This document shows positions 21,001 to 27,000 of a DNA stretch of 64,000 bases, in pieces. Source of the stretch: an uncultured Verrucomicrobiae bacterium (GTDB taxonomy: Bacteria > Verrucomicrobiota > Verrucomicrobiia > Limisphaerales > Palsa-1400). Positions within the stretch are counted from its first letter, which is position 1, and every line of letters starts with the position of its first letter. The stretch spans positions 5,824,001 to 5,888,000 of the forward strand of contig OY969763.1 of the NCBI GenBank assembly GCA_963702845.1, in the 5' to 3' direction. The position numbers were made by a program.

Positions 21001-24000
21001 GCGAGTTGGACGTGGAATTGGCCACGACAGCGAAAAACAACAACGCCCTGCCATGAAAGCTGCCAGTCGAAACGGGATACTTGCCGGGGGGAATTGGATC
21101 ATTGACCAGGTCAAGATGATCGATGCCTATCCGGCGCGCGATCACCTCGCCAATATCCGTAGTCAATCGCAAGGGACCGGCGGGTCGCCTTATAATGTGT
21201 TGGTTGATCTGGCGAACTTGCAGGCGCCGTTTCCGTTGATGGCGGCTGGACTGGTCGGCAATGATGATCTCGGTCGCACGATTTTGCAGGATTGTCGCGA
21301 GCGTAAGATTGATTGGAAGTATTTGCGGGCGACGCCGCTGGCGCCGACGTCTTACACGGATGTGATGACGGAATCGAGCGATGGGCATCGGACGTTTTTT
21401 CATCATCGCGGCGCGAATGCCTTGTGGGATGGGCATGACCTGAATTTCTCGAAGGTTAAAGCAAAGATTTTCCACCTCGGTTATCTGCTCTTATTGGATG
21501 CGTTGGATGCGCCGGATGCGAAGTTCGGCACGCGCGCGGCGCGTTTGTTAAAGATGGCGAGTGACGCCGGTCTGAAGACGAGCGTGGATGTGGTGAGCGA
21601 GGACAGCAATCGGTTCGCCAAAATCGTTTCGCCGGCGCTGAAGCACGTGGATTATTGCATTCTCAATGAGATTGAAGCGGGGAAGACGACGGGGTTCACG
21701 ATTCGCGGCGCGGATGGGAAGTTGAATACGGTTTCGCTGCGGCATGCGGCGGGTGCGCTGTTGCAGCACGGGGTGAAGGATCTGGTGGTGATTCATTTTC
21801 CGGAGGGCGCGTTTGCCCGCACGCGTAAGGGTGAGGATGTTTGGCAAAGTTCGCTCAAGCTGCCTTCCAAACACATCGCTGGAACGGCTGGCGCCGGGGA
21901 TGCGTTTGCGGCTGGTGTGTTGTTGGGATTGCACGAAGGTTGGGCGCTGCAGAAGTCGTTGTTCACCGGTGTGTGTGTGGCGGCGGCGTCGTTGTCGCAC
22001 CCGACGTGTACAGGCGGGGTCAAATCGCTGTCGGCATCGGTGAAGTTGGCGCGGAAATATCCGCCGGGAGCGCCGATCGAGCGGGCTTAATTCGAACCGC
22101 TAACACATCAAGTTGATTGTGAGGGAATACCGAGGGGTGCGGTGTTTAACGCTGAGTAGGTTTCAACAAAATCCCCAAGGCCGATTTCAGGCAAATCCTG
22201 AGCGGATTGGAATTGCACCTGATGCAGAAAAGTAGCTTCATAGTAGGCACCAAGTTGAGCTGGTTTTTTGATATGAAACCCCTGGTGCTTTACGCAGAAG
22301 ATGATTCGAATGACGCCTTGTTGTGTGAACATGCGTTCGAACTCAGCAATTTACCGATCGACTTGCGGATAGTGGATGACGGGGCGCACCTGATCAGCTG
22401 GCTTCGTGGCGAGGGCGATTATGCCGATCGCGCGAAGTTTCCCCTTCCGAGGCTCGTCATCACTGATTCCAAGATGCCGTTGAAGGGCGGTTTGGATGTG
22501 TTGCGCTGCGTCCGCACGTATCCTGAACTGCACGATATTCCCGTGGTTCTGTATTACGGGTCGATTTTTTTCCAGGATCTAGGTGTTTTCGGCGAACTGG
22601 GCGTTAACGCATGCATCGAGAAAGACTTCCACTGCCGCGAGTTGGTCCAGACAGTTGGCGACCTGCTAGGAATGCGACCAACTCTTTGGCGACCGACGAC
22701 TGCAGAAGGGCTGGGCACGTCTCCGCGGATGAGCGCTGGTGCGGGAACGCGTTGAGCGGTTGACGATCACGCTGAGTTTGGGACGACGTGGAAGTCGTCC
22801 TTACCTGCGAAACAAAAAAAGAGCGCGAACCATTTCGGTTCGCGCTCGTAAAATCAGATGGCGGACGAGGGTGTCCGCGATCGATTGAAATTACTTCGCT
22901 GCAGCTGCGGCAGGGGCGGCCACTCTGGATGTTTCTTTTTCTTTCACCAGAGTTGCACCTTTGCCGATACGATTGCGCAGGTAGGTGAGCTTGGCGCGGC
23001 GGACGGCACCTTTGCGTTCCACATCCACTTTGTCGATGCGGGGCGAGTGAATCGGGAAAATACGTTCGACGCCTTCGCCGTAGCTGATGCGGCGGACGGT
23101 GAAGGTTTCGTTCAAACCATGACCGCGGCGGCCAATGACAATGCCAGCGAAAATCTGGATACGTTCTTTGTCGCCTTCGATAACTTTGGTGTGCACGCGC
23201 ACGGAGTCGCCGACGGCGAATTTGCCCGCGTCTTTCCGATATTGTTCGGATTCAATTTTATCAAGTAATACCTGGTTCATAAATTTTCTTTCGGACGCCG
23301 CAGCGCAGCGTCGCTACCTTATTTCAACAAGTCCGGTCGTCTTTCTTTCGTTCTCTGCAGCGACTGTTCACGCCGCCATTTTTCTATCTCCGCATGGTGC
23401 CCGGACAAAAGCACCTCCGGGACTTTCATCCCGCGAAATTCTGCCGGCCGCGTATAGTGCGGGTATTCCAACTGGCCCGCACTGAACGATTCGTCTTGCG
23501 AACTTTGGTCGTCGCCGAGCGCTCCGGGCAAGAGGCGCGTTACCGCGTCAATTACCAGCATCGCCGGCAGCGAACCGTTCGTCAGAACATAGTCGCCGAT
23601 GGACAATTCCTCGTCCACCAACCCTTCGCGCACCCTTTCATCGGTCCCTTCATACGCGCCGCAAATGAATAACAGATGCTGCTCTTGCGCCAAACGTCGC
23701 GCCGCAGCCTGGTCGAACTTTTGTCCGACTGGTGTCATCAGGATCACGCGGGTTTTTTCGCCGCGTAACGCTTCGACCCCTTCAAAAATCGGTTCAGGTT
23801 TGAGGACCATTCCTGGTCCGCCACCGAACGGCCGATCATCGACCGTTTTATAATTGTCATGCGTGTAATCACGCAAGTTGACCACCCTCAGGTCAAGGAT
23901 CCCATTCTTCCGCGCCCGTTTCACAATGCTCACGTCCAGCGCGGAGAATATCTCCGGAAAAGGGGTGAGCACGTCGATTTTCACTTTTAACCTTTTTACT

Positions 24001-27000
24001 TTTTAACGACGCGAACGTTACAAGGTTAAAAAGTTAAAACGTTACAAACGTGATTACTCTCTCTCAGCATCTCGTTCCCTCTCGCGATCCGGTTTTCCTT
24101 TTCCTCCCGGCCCGTCTTCGACAATTTCCATGGTGCAGCGCAATCCGCGCTTGGCACTGCCCGCCAAAAGTAAGCTGCGAATGGCATTGATGGTGATGCC
24201 CTGACGACCAATCACTTTACCAACGTCATCGGCGTGCATGCGCACTTCGTAGACAGTCAGGCCTTCCTTCGGCACCTCAGTGACGGTGACGGCCTCGGGA
24301 TGGCTGACCAATCCCTTTACGACAAAATCGAGGAAGGCTTGCATGTCTTTTAAAAAAATTTCAGGTCGAACTAGCTCGAATTAGGTCCAAATAGCGAATC
24401 GGGCCTAATTTGCTCGGTTTTGGCCGAGTCGCGCGGAACCTTAAGCGGTCGCCGCGGCAGCTTTTTTCGCCTTCTTCATGAAGCTGGCGACAGTTTCGCT
24501 GGGTTGAGCACCTTTGCTTACCCAATAATCGGCACGCGCGGTGTCGAGCTTGAAATTGTCGGTCTGCTTACGTGGCTGATACGTGCCGATTTCCTCGATG
24601 AACTTGCCATCACGAGGACTGCGACCGTCCGCCACTACAATGCGATAATACGGCGAATTTTTTGCGCCGACCCGCTTCATTCGAATTCTAACTGGCATAA
24701 AATAGTATGTCCTAAAAAAGAGTTGGAGAGCCTAGACCCCGACCCGTGGCTTGGCAAGTCCTGTTTTAACCTGAATTTTCGGCGCGCGCGGAGCGGCGCG
24801 CCCTACCAGGAAAAACTACCGACGAGCCCTACCTTCGGAAACTTATGGCGTTTTCTTGATCAACGCTGCGTTCGTTACCGCTCCGCCAGTGTGCACGGGC
24901 GTTTTGGAATAAATTGCAGTGAGATAGGCTGCGACGGAATTGATCTGAGCTTCGGTGAGCGGACCACCGTGGTCCTGACCGAAGGCCGGCATGGTCGAGC
25001 CGGTTTTGCCGCCGTCCTTAATCCAGTCACGCCAGTAATCGAAGGTGGTCTGTTTTACTGCGGCGAGGGCTTTCAGGTCAGGCACGCCCGCGGCGCGGTG
25101 AGGTGATTCGTGGCAAATGGCGCAGTCAGCAGCGAACAACTGCAGGCCCATTTTGCCGTCGCCTTTGCGGACGTGACATTCAGCGCAGTCCTGGTTGTCG
25201 ACTTTGTGGAAGACGGCCTGACGATCTTTCATCGCTTGATCGAGGTTCTTCTTCCGTTGCTCGTCAGTCATCGCGACCATCGGGGCTGGCGGGGGGTTGT
25301 TGACTTTGACGGTCAACATTTTCATGCCAACGGATGTGTAAACGGTGATGGTCTTGGTGATGAGGCCGGGAGGTTTGCCGGCTAAAGCGACGGTGACTTT
25401 GATTTCGCCGTTGGTGCCAGGCTTGAGGTGCCAGGGTTGCGAGGGTAATTGGGCGACGGTGCAGCCGCAGCTGGTCTGGCAACGTTCGATGATGACTTCG
25501 TTGGTCCAGACGTTGGTGAGATTGAAGACGTATGGGGCGGAAGCTTCGCCGACTTTGGCGTCGTAAGTCTTGGTCTCGGAATCGAAAACGAGCGTCGGTT
25601 CCTTGGGCAGATTGGTCATCGGAACGGTGACGGAGGAGATTGGAACGCCTGCGTTAACGACAGCAGGGCTTCCCGGACGGAGCGGGCCACTCGGGCTTGG
25701 GATGACGCGCGCGGGACGCACGTTTGGCACCGGCGCAGTTGGAGCTGGCGGCGCGGGCGGCGTTGGTGTTTGAGCCAAAACGGCTGACGCCAGGGAAAGC
25801 GCAGCCATAACCATAATCCGTCGAAAGTTCTGCATAAGCGGCCAGAGGTTACACGAACTTTCCCTTAAAGACAATGTGGAAAAAGACCTAGCACCCCTTG
25901 CGTAATTACGAGTGGCTGCCGTCGCTCAATGCTTTGAATGGATTTGTTTGGGATCGAAACATTGTGTCAACTGCACAACGAGTTTAGTGAAAAAAAGCCA
26001 GGCCGTAGCTTAGTCCATTAATGAGGACAAGGCCCGGCCTGGCTTTCAATCTGCTAACGTCTGTTTTATTGGGTGATGCGATAGTAACGTTCGGTCGGCA
26101 GCGGGCCGGGGTCGCTATAGGAGCCTGCGCCGTTCGCGTCTGTCGAGACAACGACAAGTGTCTGCCAGTTAATCGGCGTCAGAGTGTCGGTGTATTGCAC
26201 TGTGTAGCTGGTGTTCGGTGCGCCGGTGAATGTGCCGGTGCCAGCGCCGGTGACAGACTGGGACGGCGCTGGGAAAAGCAGGTTCAACAGCAACGACTTG
26301 CCATCTTGACTGGTGCTGAGGACAAATACGCGACCACCGGTCGAGTTGCTGAGGTTGTTTGTGGTGACATTGAATGCGGTGGGGTCAAAACCGGTGATTC
26401 CACCGGTGGTCGTGGCGATAGCCCAAGTTGATCCGCTGTTGAAACTGGCGGCGTTGCCCGGAGCGGTTCCGGAGAGCGATTGGACATCGATGTTGAATTT
26501 ACCGGCTGAAGTCGCGGCAATGGTGAGCGTTCCGTTAATGGCGACGGTGTCCCAACCAGGATCGGAACCGGCAGTGCCGAGCGCATCGTTGATTTGCCAC
26601 GCATAATGCCCAGCGGCGTTCCAGGTTTGATTGCCAGTGTTGATCGTACCGACGTTGATGCCAGGAGCAATCGTTCCGTTCGTGGCGACAGTGACTGCCG
26701 GGGTGGTTCCTGTTCCGTTGAGTGTGCCAGTGCTGTTGATCGAAACGGATGAACTGCTGGAGATGTTGCCAGTTACCGTCAGGGTGCCGGCGTTAATCGG
26801 TGTGGTTCCCGTGTAGGTGCTCGTGGCTGCAACAACCAATGTGCCCGCGCCCGCCTTGGTGAAATTGCGCGCTGACGCGTCCTGGCCGATTGCGCCGTTG
26901 AGCGTCAAAGTTTTGGCTGAAACGGTGATGGTGCGATTTGCTGCACTGAGAGTCACTGGTCCGCCGATGGTCATGTTGTTCGCGTTACCAACATAGGTTG

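Follow-up and report, generated by a model that had tools for sequence, protein, structure and literature searches.

Introduction

According to PMC9032327, bacteria in general conserve RimM and RimP. Outside the CPR, rimM is found in 94.9% and rimP in 92.3% of genomes, and both genes are GTDB bac120 markers (PMC12641178). Their loss has so far been tied to tiny genomes: in the CPR, with genomes of 0.5-1.5 Mb, rimM and rimP are present in 0.4% of genomes each, rsmG, rsgA and era are reduced, and der, obgE and rbfA are often missing (PMC12641178, bioRxiv 2024.11.29.625318). The text of Amikura et al. names neither Verrucomicrobiota nor Planctomycetota nor PVC, and reports a low factor count in Omnitrophota (PMC12641178). 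The literature that we searched holds no statement of RimM loss in PVC bacteria; the heat map of the 2025 survey may show it, and the supplement of this survey, about which the initial annotation worried, lists no per-genome presence table. The available passages of PMC2474590 name cell-division genes as the losses at the PVC ancestor, and rimM was not found among these losses in those passages or in two supplements.

In E. coli, suppressors of rimM deletion involve uS13, uS19, h31, h33b and the dosage of rbfA, according to the accessible parts of PMC9032327, PMC3575805 and 10.64898/2026.01.09.698670. The accessible part of the last of these also reports that the 30S heads of E. coli lacking rimM self-assemble under IF1, IF3 and RsfS, and that rbfA overexpression failed to rescue the lag of this strain, contrary to an older report. 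Displacement of RbfA by IF3 is described in the available portion of PMC7145577. No factor suppressing the loss of RimP in E. coli is known.

Results

The trmD operon of GCA_963702845.1

The window analysed is a stretch of 64 kb (64,000 nucleotides) of contig OY969763.1 from the Verrucomicrobiota genome GCA_963702845.1, in which no Rfam family was found. It carries the trmD operon, with the following features (window coordinates):

24441..24698, minus strand: rpsP, 30S ribosomal protein bS16, 85 aa (TIGR00002, 110 bits against a cut-off of 45)
24054..24344, minus strand: khpA-like gene for a KH-domain RNA-binding protein, 96 aa (PF13083, 63.6 bits against a cut-off of 32.1; under the equivalog cut-offs of NCBIfam)
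23985..24053, no strand: 69-bp spacer between khpA and trmD, at the ancestral rimM position (from the sequence)
23319..23984, minus strand: trmD, tRNA (guanosine-37-N1) methyltransferase, 221 aa (TIGR00088, 316 bits against a cut-off of 195)
22891..23280, minus strand: rplS, 50S ribosomal protein bL19, 129 aa (TIGR01024, 148.5 bits against a cut-off of 90.7)

The absence of rimM from rpsP-khpA-trmD-rplS, claimed in the initial annotation, was borne out. The 69-bp spacer is too short for a gene of about 170 codons, no rimM remnant was seen in it, and rimM occupies the matching operon position in four outgroup loci (L257, L258, L259 and L266). KhpA was considered as a substitute for RimM and rejected, because its gene adjoins rimM in the RimM-bearing outgroups and is gone from many loci that lack rimM.

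RimM in the PVC phyla

The search of 86,195 six-frame ORFs of GCA_963702845.1 with a full-length RimM profile gave a best match of only 15.3 bits (E 0.053), and tblastn, which tolerates frameshifts, found no RimM in this genome with 15 RimM queries. No protein combining the N-terminal barrel and the PRC barrel of RimM (PF01782 and PF24986) was found there; a single PRC-barrel protein passed the cut-off, and it carries PRC domains in tandem without the RimM N domain.

In our wider searches PF01782 was found in none of 201 Verrucomicrobiota genomes, 91 Omnitrophota and six Chlamydiota, while TrmD, as a positive control, was found in 121/121 and NusA in 147/151 of the first genomes of the Verrucomicrobiota sample. 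The single match among 131 Planctomycetota lies next to a transposase on a contig of 1.9 kb; this rimM looks alphaproteobacterial and is likely a contaminant. PF24986, the PRC-barrel half of RimM, was found in none of five genomes. The large PF01782 counts are not proof when taken alone, because this family gave a false negative on the divergent Cloacimonadales RimM of locus L266, which also scored 26.3 bits with PF24986, below the cut-off of 27, and was caught by gene order and by the full-length profile.

Gene order was consistent with these counts. Of 50 trmD loci from Verrucomicrobiota, 43 have a closed rimM slot, rpsP or rpsP-khpA directly preceding trmD; the remaining seven are rearranged and stand outside this evidence. 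An rpsP-trmD order without rimM was also seen in a planctomycete, a chlamydia and an omnitrophote. In metagenomes, all 41 loci that matched a planctomycete TrmD at 60% identity or more and that showed rpsP left less than 300 bp. When the full-length profile, used on one whole genome and on trmD flanks, was run over the trmD loci, it matched the four outgroup loci with 44.8 to 224 bits and none of the 53 PVC loci (best score, 6.8 bits). The phylum-wide absence of RimM held for the Verrucomicrobiota searched, and the rimM loss is wider than earlier claimed: the gene was not found in those Planctomycetota, Omnitrophota and Chlamydiota searched either, the probable contaminant apart.

RimP and the question of hidden homologues

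In GCA_963702845.1, RimP was found neither with a profile built from planctomycete RimPs (best E 1.4) nor by tblastn with 10 RimP queries, and nusA (C1:5181053, contig OY969763.1) is preceded by a PAS/kinase-type ORF rather than by rimP, in keeping with the initial annotation. No RimP-like ORF was seen upstream of 30 nusA genes. Among the 201 Verrucomicrobiota, where RimP had been said to occur almost never, one match was obtained; this copy is truncated, adjoins lpxD on a contig of 2.4 kb and is likely a contaminant. Genome size does not explain the absence of RimM and RimP, as had been argued, since large genomes lack them too. RimP is found in 14 of 111 Planctomycetota (about one in eight); the trmD gene-order evidence for rimM leaves out these RimP-keeping planctomycetes.

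RimM and RimP might instead persist in PVC bacteria, moved and diverged beyond profile detection. The L266 protein is a real RimM that was missed by a family profile, and the planctomycete RimPs are themselves divergent (E up to 7e-4), with nusA in the flanks of 0/10 of their genes. However, the L266 RimM kept its slot and scored 44.8 bits with the full-length profile, whereas no ORF of GCA_963702845.1 exceeded 15.3 bits, and the only PRC-barrel protein over the cut-off in that genome has no RimM N domain. The planctomycete RimP profile likewise gave no new clear match in the 201 Verrucomicrobiota, its three weak matches reaching E 0.007-0.008 at 17 bits. We therefore hold such hidden homologues to be improbable.

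Era, RsgA, RsmG and the retained factors

No match to TIGR00436, TIGR00157 or PF02527 was found in GCA_963702845.1, and tblastn with 21 Era, 10 RsgA and 8 RsmG queries returned only other GTPases, an ABC ATPase and noise, so that the reported lack of these three factors in this genome was upheld. Their description as losses common to the phylum was not: Era was found in 69 of 201 Verrucomicrobiota (in the order Limisphaerales, 20/201), RsgA in 56 of 151 and RsmG in 71 of 151. These wider counts show that the earlier small samples for RsmG and RsgA had misled. Era, RsgA and RsmG are thus patchy in the phylum, and the family Palsa-1400, with genomes of 4.5-6 Mb, lacks all three (0/6, 0/5 and 0/5, respectively). 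The set of five missing factors proposed initially stands for this genome, its family and some other families, and falls as a phylum-wide feature.

The order phoH-ybeY-DUF502-recO is present at C1:5893197-5895992 (contig OY969763.1), phoH and recO being presumed from their motifs. The initial annotation was right about ybeY-DUF502-recO; the DUF502 gene is no evidence for a displaced era, because ybeY, recO, DUF502 or phoH lay within about 1.5 kb of none of 27 verrucomicrobial era loci, and DUF502 was rejected as an occupant of the era slot.

RbfA, RsmA, YbeY, RsfS, IF1 and the C domain of IF3 are present in GCA_963702845.1, as are ORFs that we take, from their motifs, to encode Der, Obg, HflX, YchF, EngB and an MnmE-like protein. 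This 6.03-Mb assembly is 89.76% complete and carries frameshifts or indel errors in infB, infC, infA and secY, which could suggest that genes are missing merely through incompleteness or error. However, tblastn is frameshift-tolerant, the operon is intact across the khpA-trmD gap, and Palsa-1400 relatives that are 92-98% complete also lack Era, RsgA and RsmG. The chance of an assembly artefact is next to nil, this reading being largely refuted already by the family and phylum counts.

A PVC ancestor with a reduced genome might also have lost these factors as the CPR did, its descendants having regrown. The scarcity of rimM and rimP in the CPR (0.4% of genomes), the small genomes of Chlamydiota and Omnitrophota and the roughly 75 genes inferred lost at the PVC ancestor in the available passages of PMC2474590 speak for such a legacy. 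We nevertheless consider it very improbable: many PVC lineages still have RimP, Era, RsgA and RsmG, which argues against a single purge of factors, and GCA_963702845.1 keeps Der, Obg, HflX, YchF, EngB and MnmE, several of which are often missing in the CPR.

The signature protein TIGR04137

An unrelated PVC-specific protein could do the job of RimM or, as a lasting ribosome component, make RimM superfluous. The strongest candidate is the signature protein of TIGR04137 (model name Chlam_Ver_rRNA), which is small, basic and 51 aa long, reported as CT421.2 to be exclusive to PVC in the accessible part of PMC3444138. Its gene is found in GCA_963702845.1 at C1:4456788-4456943 (contig OY969763.1; 84.2 bits against a cut-off of 50), in one Omnitrophota and in one Auribacterota genome, both without RimM; it was not found in one Eisenbacteria and one Cloacimonadales genome that bear RimM, and it scored over the cut-off in 0/14 controls. 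The protein is strongly conserved and Lys/Arg-rich, with a predicted extended structure of two helices (pLDDT 73.5); small ribosomal proteins are often extended, with helices. It was reportedly found to bind nucleic acids by Lagkouvardos in 2014. No PDB sequence match, no Foldseek match and no Pfam family over the cut-off was obtained for it; its best VIA-align Z was 3.3, and its Atlas matches were members of its own family only. In locus L260 its gene precedes one that we take to encode an rRNA pseudouridine synthase-like protein.

Against a replacement, a PVC-wide gain necessarily mirrors a PVC-wide loss, so that one event is seen and no correlation; one Poribacteria genome has neither rimM at the locus nor the TIGR04137 protein; CPR bacteria lack rimM as well; and the gene of GCA_963702845.1 precedes tyrS, away from ribosome genes. 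We regard a replacement as unlikely, and the particular proposal that the signature protein came into being upon RimM loss in the PVC ancestor, as a novel component of the 30S head or as an assembly factor, as quite improbable. If true, it would mean that small-subunit assembly follows a separate path in the PVC superphylum, would give a function to a long-unexplained signature protein, and would account for RimP, Era and RsgA then turning dispensable lineage by lineage.

Candidate compensations in rRNA, ribosomal proteins and initiation

The h33b loop reads GAAA in 19 of 20 PVC 16S genes, the exception being GAGA in Parachlamydiales, from a set of 121 sequences of which 44 had sufficient length, 3 of these being unreadable. 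An A at E. coli position 1015 in h33b, the site of what we take to be the suppressor base, is likewise found in 19 of 20 PVC genes and in three of five RimM-bearing genomes. Since three of these five also have the GAAA loop, it is not specific to lineages without RimM and makes no case for a fixed suppressor of rimM loss. The h31 stretch 955-985 of GCA_963702845.1 equals that of E. coli save for its first base. No deletions were found in its uS19 or uS13, and a few substitutions toward the C-terminal part of uS19 are not interpretable.

An SD-like motif precedes 9.8% of 2,326 ORFs in GCA_963702845.1, against a background of 5-6% (E. coli ribosomal cluster, 22/28). SD-poor initiation was rejected as a general cause of a dispensable Era, because in another class the motif precedes 24 of 26 starts in Era-less genomes versus 21 of 38 in Era-bearing ones.

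Discussion

The absences are probably real and layered, with a single rimM deletion in the PVC ancestor and a 30S head that self-assembles under the factors that are kept. We infer that this one deletion was followed by a later loss of rimP and by repeated loss, or regain, of era, rsgA and rsmG. Since RimM and four other small-subunit helpers are absent, ribosomes of this genome would be built by another route. The mechanism proposed for the head, taken alone, is offered tentatively, as somewhat short of an even chance. The head would fold and take up uS13, uS19, uS3, uS10 and uS14 without a chaperone, in a way that may resemble the slow process in E. coli without rimM, while RbfA, RsmA, YbeY, IF1, IF3 and RsfS would keep immature subunits from translating, and release of RbfA by IF3 would replace RsgA. 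The cost would be a long lag and a slowed assembly of the head, which slow growers could afford and which fixed changes in the rRNA or proteins of the head may lessen. Counted against this explanation are that Era is vital in E. coli and the proposal offers no bypass for it, that rbfA overexpression failed to cure the lag of E. coli lacking rimM, that RimP loss in E. coli has no known suppressor, that the h33b comparison revealed no compensating change, and that all of the support is evidence of absence, with six genomes for Chlamydiota.

If an entire superphylum does without RimM, and a family with genomes of 4.5-6 Mb without five 30S factors, Era among them, then the loss of such factors would be uncoupled from genome reduction. 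PVC bacteria would serve as natural models, open to cultivation, of ribosome assembly with few factors; for V. spinosum and P. limnophila, gene essentiality has been assessed by transposon insertion (PMC12283558, PMC10632474). The rimM loss would be an additional common loss favouring PVC monophyly, would affect marker-based completeness scores for PVC phyla, and would set limits to RimM as a target for broad-spectrum antibacterials.

Comparison with known systems

Comparison with the ffh-rpsP-khpA-rimM-trmD-rplS (trmD) operon showed that gene content and order are shared except that rimM is cut out; a further difference from this canonical operon is that, among 18 loci of the same class whose order is intact, 16 lack khpA as well. 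The clade-wide gains and losses described in the available parts of PMC2474590 and PMC3444138 are, like the rimM loss, marks of the superphylum. E. coli rimM deletion strains likewise live without RimM, their heads being guarded by IF1, IF3 and RsfS in the accessible part of their description; however, they are sick laboratory strains that miss one factor, whereas PVC bacteria are wild lineages and the family Palsa-1400 lacks five factors, including Era. Verrucomicrobiota resemble the Patescibacteria/CPR of Amikura et al. in the near absence of rimM (0/201) and rimP (1/201), but differ in that genome sizes among the bacteria studied here go up to 5-10 Mb, and GCA_963702845.1, at 6.03 Mb, keeps der, obgE and rbfA.

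The trmD locus and the position of rimM

The genes around trmD in the window were identified by family matches as follows.

22891-23280, minus strand: rplS
23319-23984, minus strand: trmD
24054-24344, minus strand: khpA-like gene (match to a KH-domain family)
24441-24698, minus strand: rpsP

The distance between khpA and trmD is 69 bp. The gene order in an Eisenbacteria genome is ffh-rpsP-khpA-rimM-trmD-rplS, and rimM occupies the same khpA/rpsP-trmD slot in three further loci from outgroups (RimM-bearing genomes outside the PVC superphylum). Because four outgroup loci carry rimM at this position, gene order indicates that the 69-bp gap marks the ancestral rimM slot, in agreement with the initial annotation that rimM is missing from rpsP-khpA-trmD-rplS.

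No ffh lies upstream of rpsP in the window. Three other ORFs are found there, with putative identities based on sequence motifs.

24843-25874, minus strand: secreted multi-CxxCH cytochrome c-like protein
26066-28702, minus strand: autotransporter-repeat protein
28957-33483, minus strand: LamG/Ig-repeat protein

Two neighbouring ORFs of 298 and 179 aa (17262-18732, minus strand) resemble an inserted island; the shorter one may have a TIR-like or nucleotide-sensing domain.

Search of the G000 genome for the five factors

The genome under study, G000, is a single 6.03-Mb contig (C1) estimated to be 89.76% complete. Four of its genes are frameshifted, split or cut, most likely through long-read indel errors.

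C1:1212669-1213244: infC
C1:1404755-1404958: infA
C1:1405799-1407190: presumably secY
C1:5182448-5184993: infB

Since genes carry frameshifts, tblastn was run in addition to profiles. A full-length RimM profile of 113 proteins (112 plus the planctomycete match L198), used unfiltered on the 86,195 six-frame ORFs of G000, reached 15.3 bits at most (E 0.053), in the tail of an isomerase-like protein of 284 aa, and the best match to a profile built on 10 planctomycete RimPs had an E of 1.4. The best tblastn matches in G000 were E 0.056 for RimM (15 queries), 0.082 for RimP (10 queries), 0.009 for RsmG (8 queries) and 1.5e-5 for RsgA (10 queries), the last to an ABC ATPase, while 21 Era queries matched only other GTPases and an Era KH-domain profile matched nothing. 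The small-GTPase domain had 13 matches in G000; the 11 listed include what we take to be Der, MnmE, Obg, HflX, YchF, EngB, FeoB, IF2, an EF-G paralogue and SelB. The sole PRC match above the cut-off was a tandem PRC-barrel protein (C1:5938109-5938882) that is not RimM-like. These results uphold the reported absence of RimM, RimP, Era, RsgA and RsmG from G000, and among members of its family (92-98% complete) Era was found in 0/6, RsgA in 0/5 and RsmG in 0/5. G000 does encode RbfA, RsmA, YbeY, RsfS, IF1 and the IF3 C domain. Cultured members of its order, which was placed by the source names (Limisphaera, Limisphaerales) of Era proteins from same-order genomes, are free-living, and G000 may be so too.

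Several other ribosomal features were observed. In G000, the N terminus of uS11 (C1:1403406-1404035) is extended by about 75 aa rich in Ala, Pro and Lys, and that of uS5 (C1:1407803-1408534) by a long stretch rich in Gly and Arg. Two genes are bS21-like by motif (C1:4615844-4616101 and 673542-673745), one of them immediately upstream of der. The S10 cluster is split, with rpsJ-rplC-rplD-rplW (C1:1103600-1106400) about 300 kb from rplB onward (1401000-1415000), and tblastn with the E. coli protein did not find uL30. A tRNA-Sec (C1:2718603-2718699) lies near a SelB-like gene (2713267-2715258). In the loci L107, L111 and L127, from CPR-like genomes, the 16S genes are broken by long insertions.

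RimM in the PVC phyla

The RimM N domain (PF01782) was matched in 0/201 Verrucomicrobiota and in 10 of 14 control genomes, while subsets of the Verrucomicrobiota sample gave TrmD in 121/121 and NusA in 147/151; the C-terminal model PF24986 gave 0/5. Among genomes of other phyla, picked via named 16S loci, PF01782 was matched in 1/131 Planctomycetota, 0/91 Omnitrophota and 0/6 Chlamydiota, and in neither one Brocadiales nor one Auribacterota bin. The planctomycete match (L198, genome G314, contig C89), alphaproteobacterial in appearance, adjoins a transposase on a contig of 1,931 bp that seems foreign to its bin and probably represents contamination.

PF01782 counts alone cannot prove loss, because a Cloacimonadales chromosome scored as RimM-less carries a highly divergent 172-aa RimM in the khpA-trmD slot (L266:2166-2684, minus strand; 44.8 bits on the full-length profile and 26.3 on PF24986, slightly below the cut-off). 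Much weight therefore rests on gene order. The 30 best-scoring trmD loci comprised 27 with rpsP-khpA-trmD, one with rpsP-trmD and two rearranged, and 20 more hand-picked loci of the same class comprised 15 with rpsP-trmD and five rearranged. The rpsP-trmD order was also found in one planctomycete, one chlamydia and one omnitrophote. On trmD loci, the full-length profile matched 4/4 outgroup RimMs and 0/53 PVC loci.

Planctomycete TrmD retrieved 80 metagenome loci, 66 with rpsP in view; the rpsP-trmD space was below 300 bp in 62 of these 66, and in 41/41 at a TrmD identity of at least 60%. RimM was matched at six loci without taxonomy (TrmD identity 48-52%), some of which may be deep planctomycetes. 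A Poribacteria genome has khpA-ylqD-trmD (L262:2181-2600, minus strand); rimM is missing from the slot, PF01782 has no match, and the genome is possibly a further loss. The core observation is thus real and, for RimM, broader than reported: the 0/201 count and the closed trmD loci bear out its absence from Verrucomicrobiota, and the absence extends to Planctomycetota, Omnitrophota and Chlamydiota.

RimP in the PVC phyla

RimP (PF02576) was matched in 1/201 Verrucomicrobiota. This match (L001, genome G135, contig C48) is a 106-aa partial copy adjoining lpxD on a 2.4-kb contig, nearest to model PRK02001, which we take to be the Bacteroidota-type RimP, and we read the contig as a contaminant foreign to its bin. 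The near absence claimed for the phylum is solid. The planctomycete-RimP profile gave, in the 201 genomes, the same contaminant and three 17-bit matches (E 0.007-0.008), and 30 nusA loci had varied upstream genes and a RimP score in 0/30. RimP was found in 14/111 Planctomycetota; the ten examined among these 14 are full-length and divergent, with nusA in 0/10 of their available flanks. None was found in three Chlamydiota and two Omnitrophota.

Era, RsgA and RsmG

At E 1e-40, Era was found in 69/201 Verrucomicrobiota, every one outside the class of G000, and in 0/66 same-class genomes of that sample (66 summed from families). At E 1e-33 it was found in 20/201 genomes of the order, spread over seven genera, which agrees with the earlier count of 11/61. 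RsgA was present in 56/151 of the phylum and 26 of about 50 of the class, and RsmG in 71/151 and 16 of about 50. The loss of these three factors stands for G000 and its family, the level at which it sits; as a phylum-wide set it was overstated.

In a tree of 21 Era proteins, a long branch (2.19) sets the 12 from the order apart from the rest, and the order's proteins (L245-L256) end earlier than those from other classes. The order may have regained Era by transfer; regain and repeated loss are both possible, because the tree has no outgroup and leaves out 6 of 27 loci. The DUF502 gene between ybeY and recO had been placed where era often lies, which we do not accept as evidence of a displaced era, since 0/27 verrucomicrobial era loci adjoin ybeY, recO, DUF502 or phoH.

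Assembly of the 30S head

Because G000 keeps IF1, IF3, RsfS and RbfA, our best reading is that its 30S head would assemble unassisted, guarded by an IF1/IF3/RsfS checkpoint, and that IF3 would release RbfA. Unassisted assembly might be tolerated in slow growers, which bacteria of G000's kind probably are. In E. coli, head folding is aided by RimM, which binds uS19; deletion of RimM is viable, and suppressors involve uS13, uS19, h31, h33b and rbfA dosage (PMC9032327, PMC3575805). Without it the head self-assembles late, with joining blocked by IF1, IF3 and RsfS (10.64898/2026.01.09.698670), and RbfA release is possible via IF3 (PMC7145577). Against unassisted assembly, E. coli cannot do without Era, extra rbfA does not rescue E. 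coli lacking RimM (10.64898/2026.01.09.698670), and no suppressor of RimP loss is known (PMC9032327).

Compensating changes specific to RimM-less lineages were sought and none was found; the h33b loop base is not specific, as RimM-bearing lineages have it too. Weak Shine-Dalgarno use was rejected as a general cause of Era being dispensable, as it does not follow Era presence. Such motifs precede about 10% of G000 ORFs (background 5-6%), the 16S anti-SD is intact, and leaders of ribosomal genes are mostly AT-rich; use is alike (6/57) in G063, an Akkermansia-sized genome of the same class.

The boldest alternative is that RimM was substituted by TIGR04137, a small basic PVC signature protein of 51 aa, encoded in G000 upstream of tyrS.

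C1:4456788-4456943: TIGR04137 protein

Its range, both as published (PMC3444138) and as computed here, coincides with the RimM gap. However, this match amounts to a single event, and the Poribacteria genome lacks both proteins. For TIGR04137, neither a solved relative nor a matching fold was found.

Comparison with published surveys

The literature searched, which included few subscription papers, held no statement of rimM loss in PVC bacteria. A V. spinosum-E. coli ortholog list omits rimM, rimP and era, a weak test because rbfA is missing as well. Public phyletic tables such as COG and KEGG probably contain the pattern implicitly. The word rimM is absent from the available parts of PMC12283558 and PMC10632474, and those of PMC2474590 infer that the PVC ancestor lost about 75 genes, naming only division genes. 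A 2025 survey of ribosome-factor loss in CPR bacteria (PMC12641178; bioRxiv 2024.11.29.625318) sampled 45 Verrucomicrobiota along with 40 Planctomycetota; its available text names neither phylum nor PVC. The RimM gap may be visible in its Fig. 2a heat map; the available supplement holds genome metadata and pooled rates, with no per-genome presence table found. Those rates place rimM in 94.9% of non-CPR and 0.4% of CPR genomes, and the PVC loss is notable because it is found in large genomes and across a superphylum.
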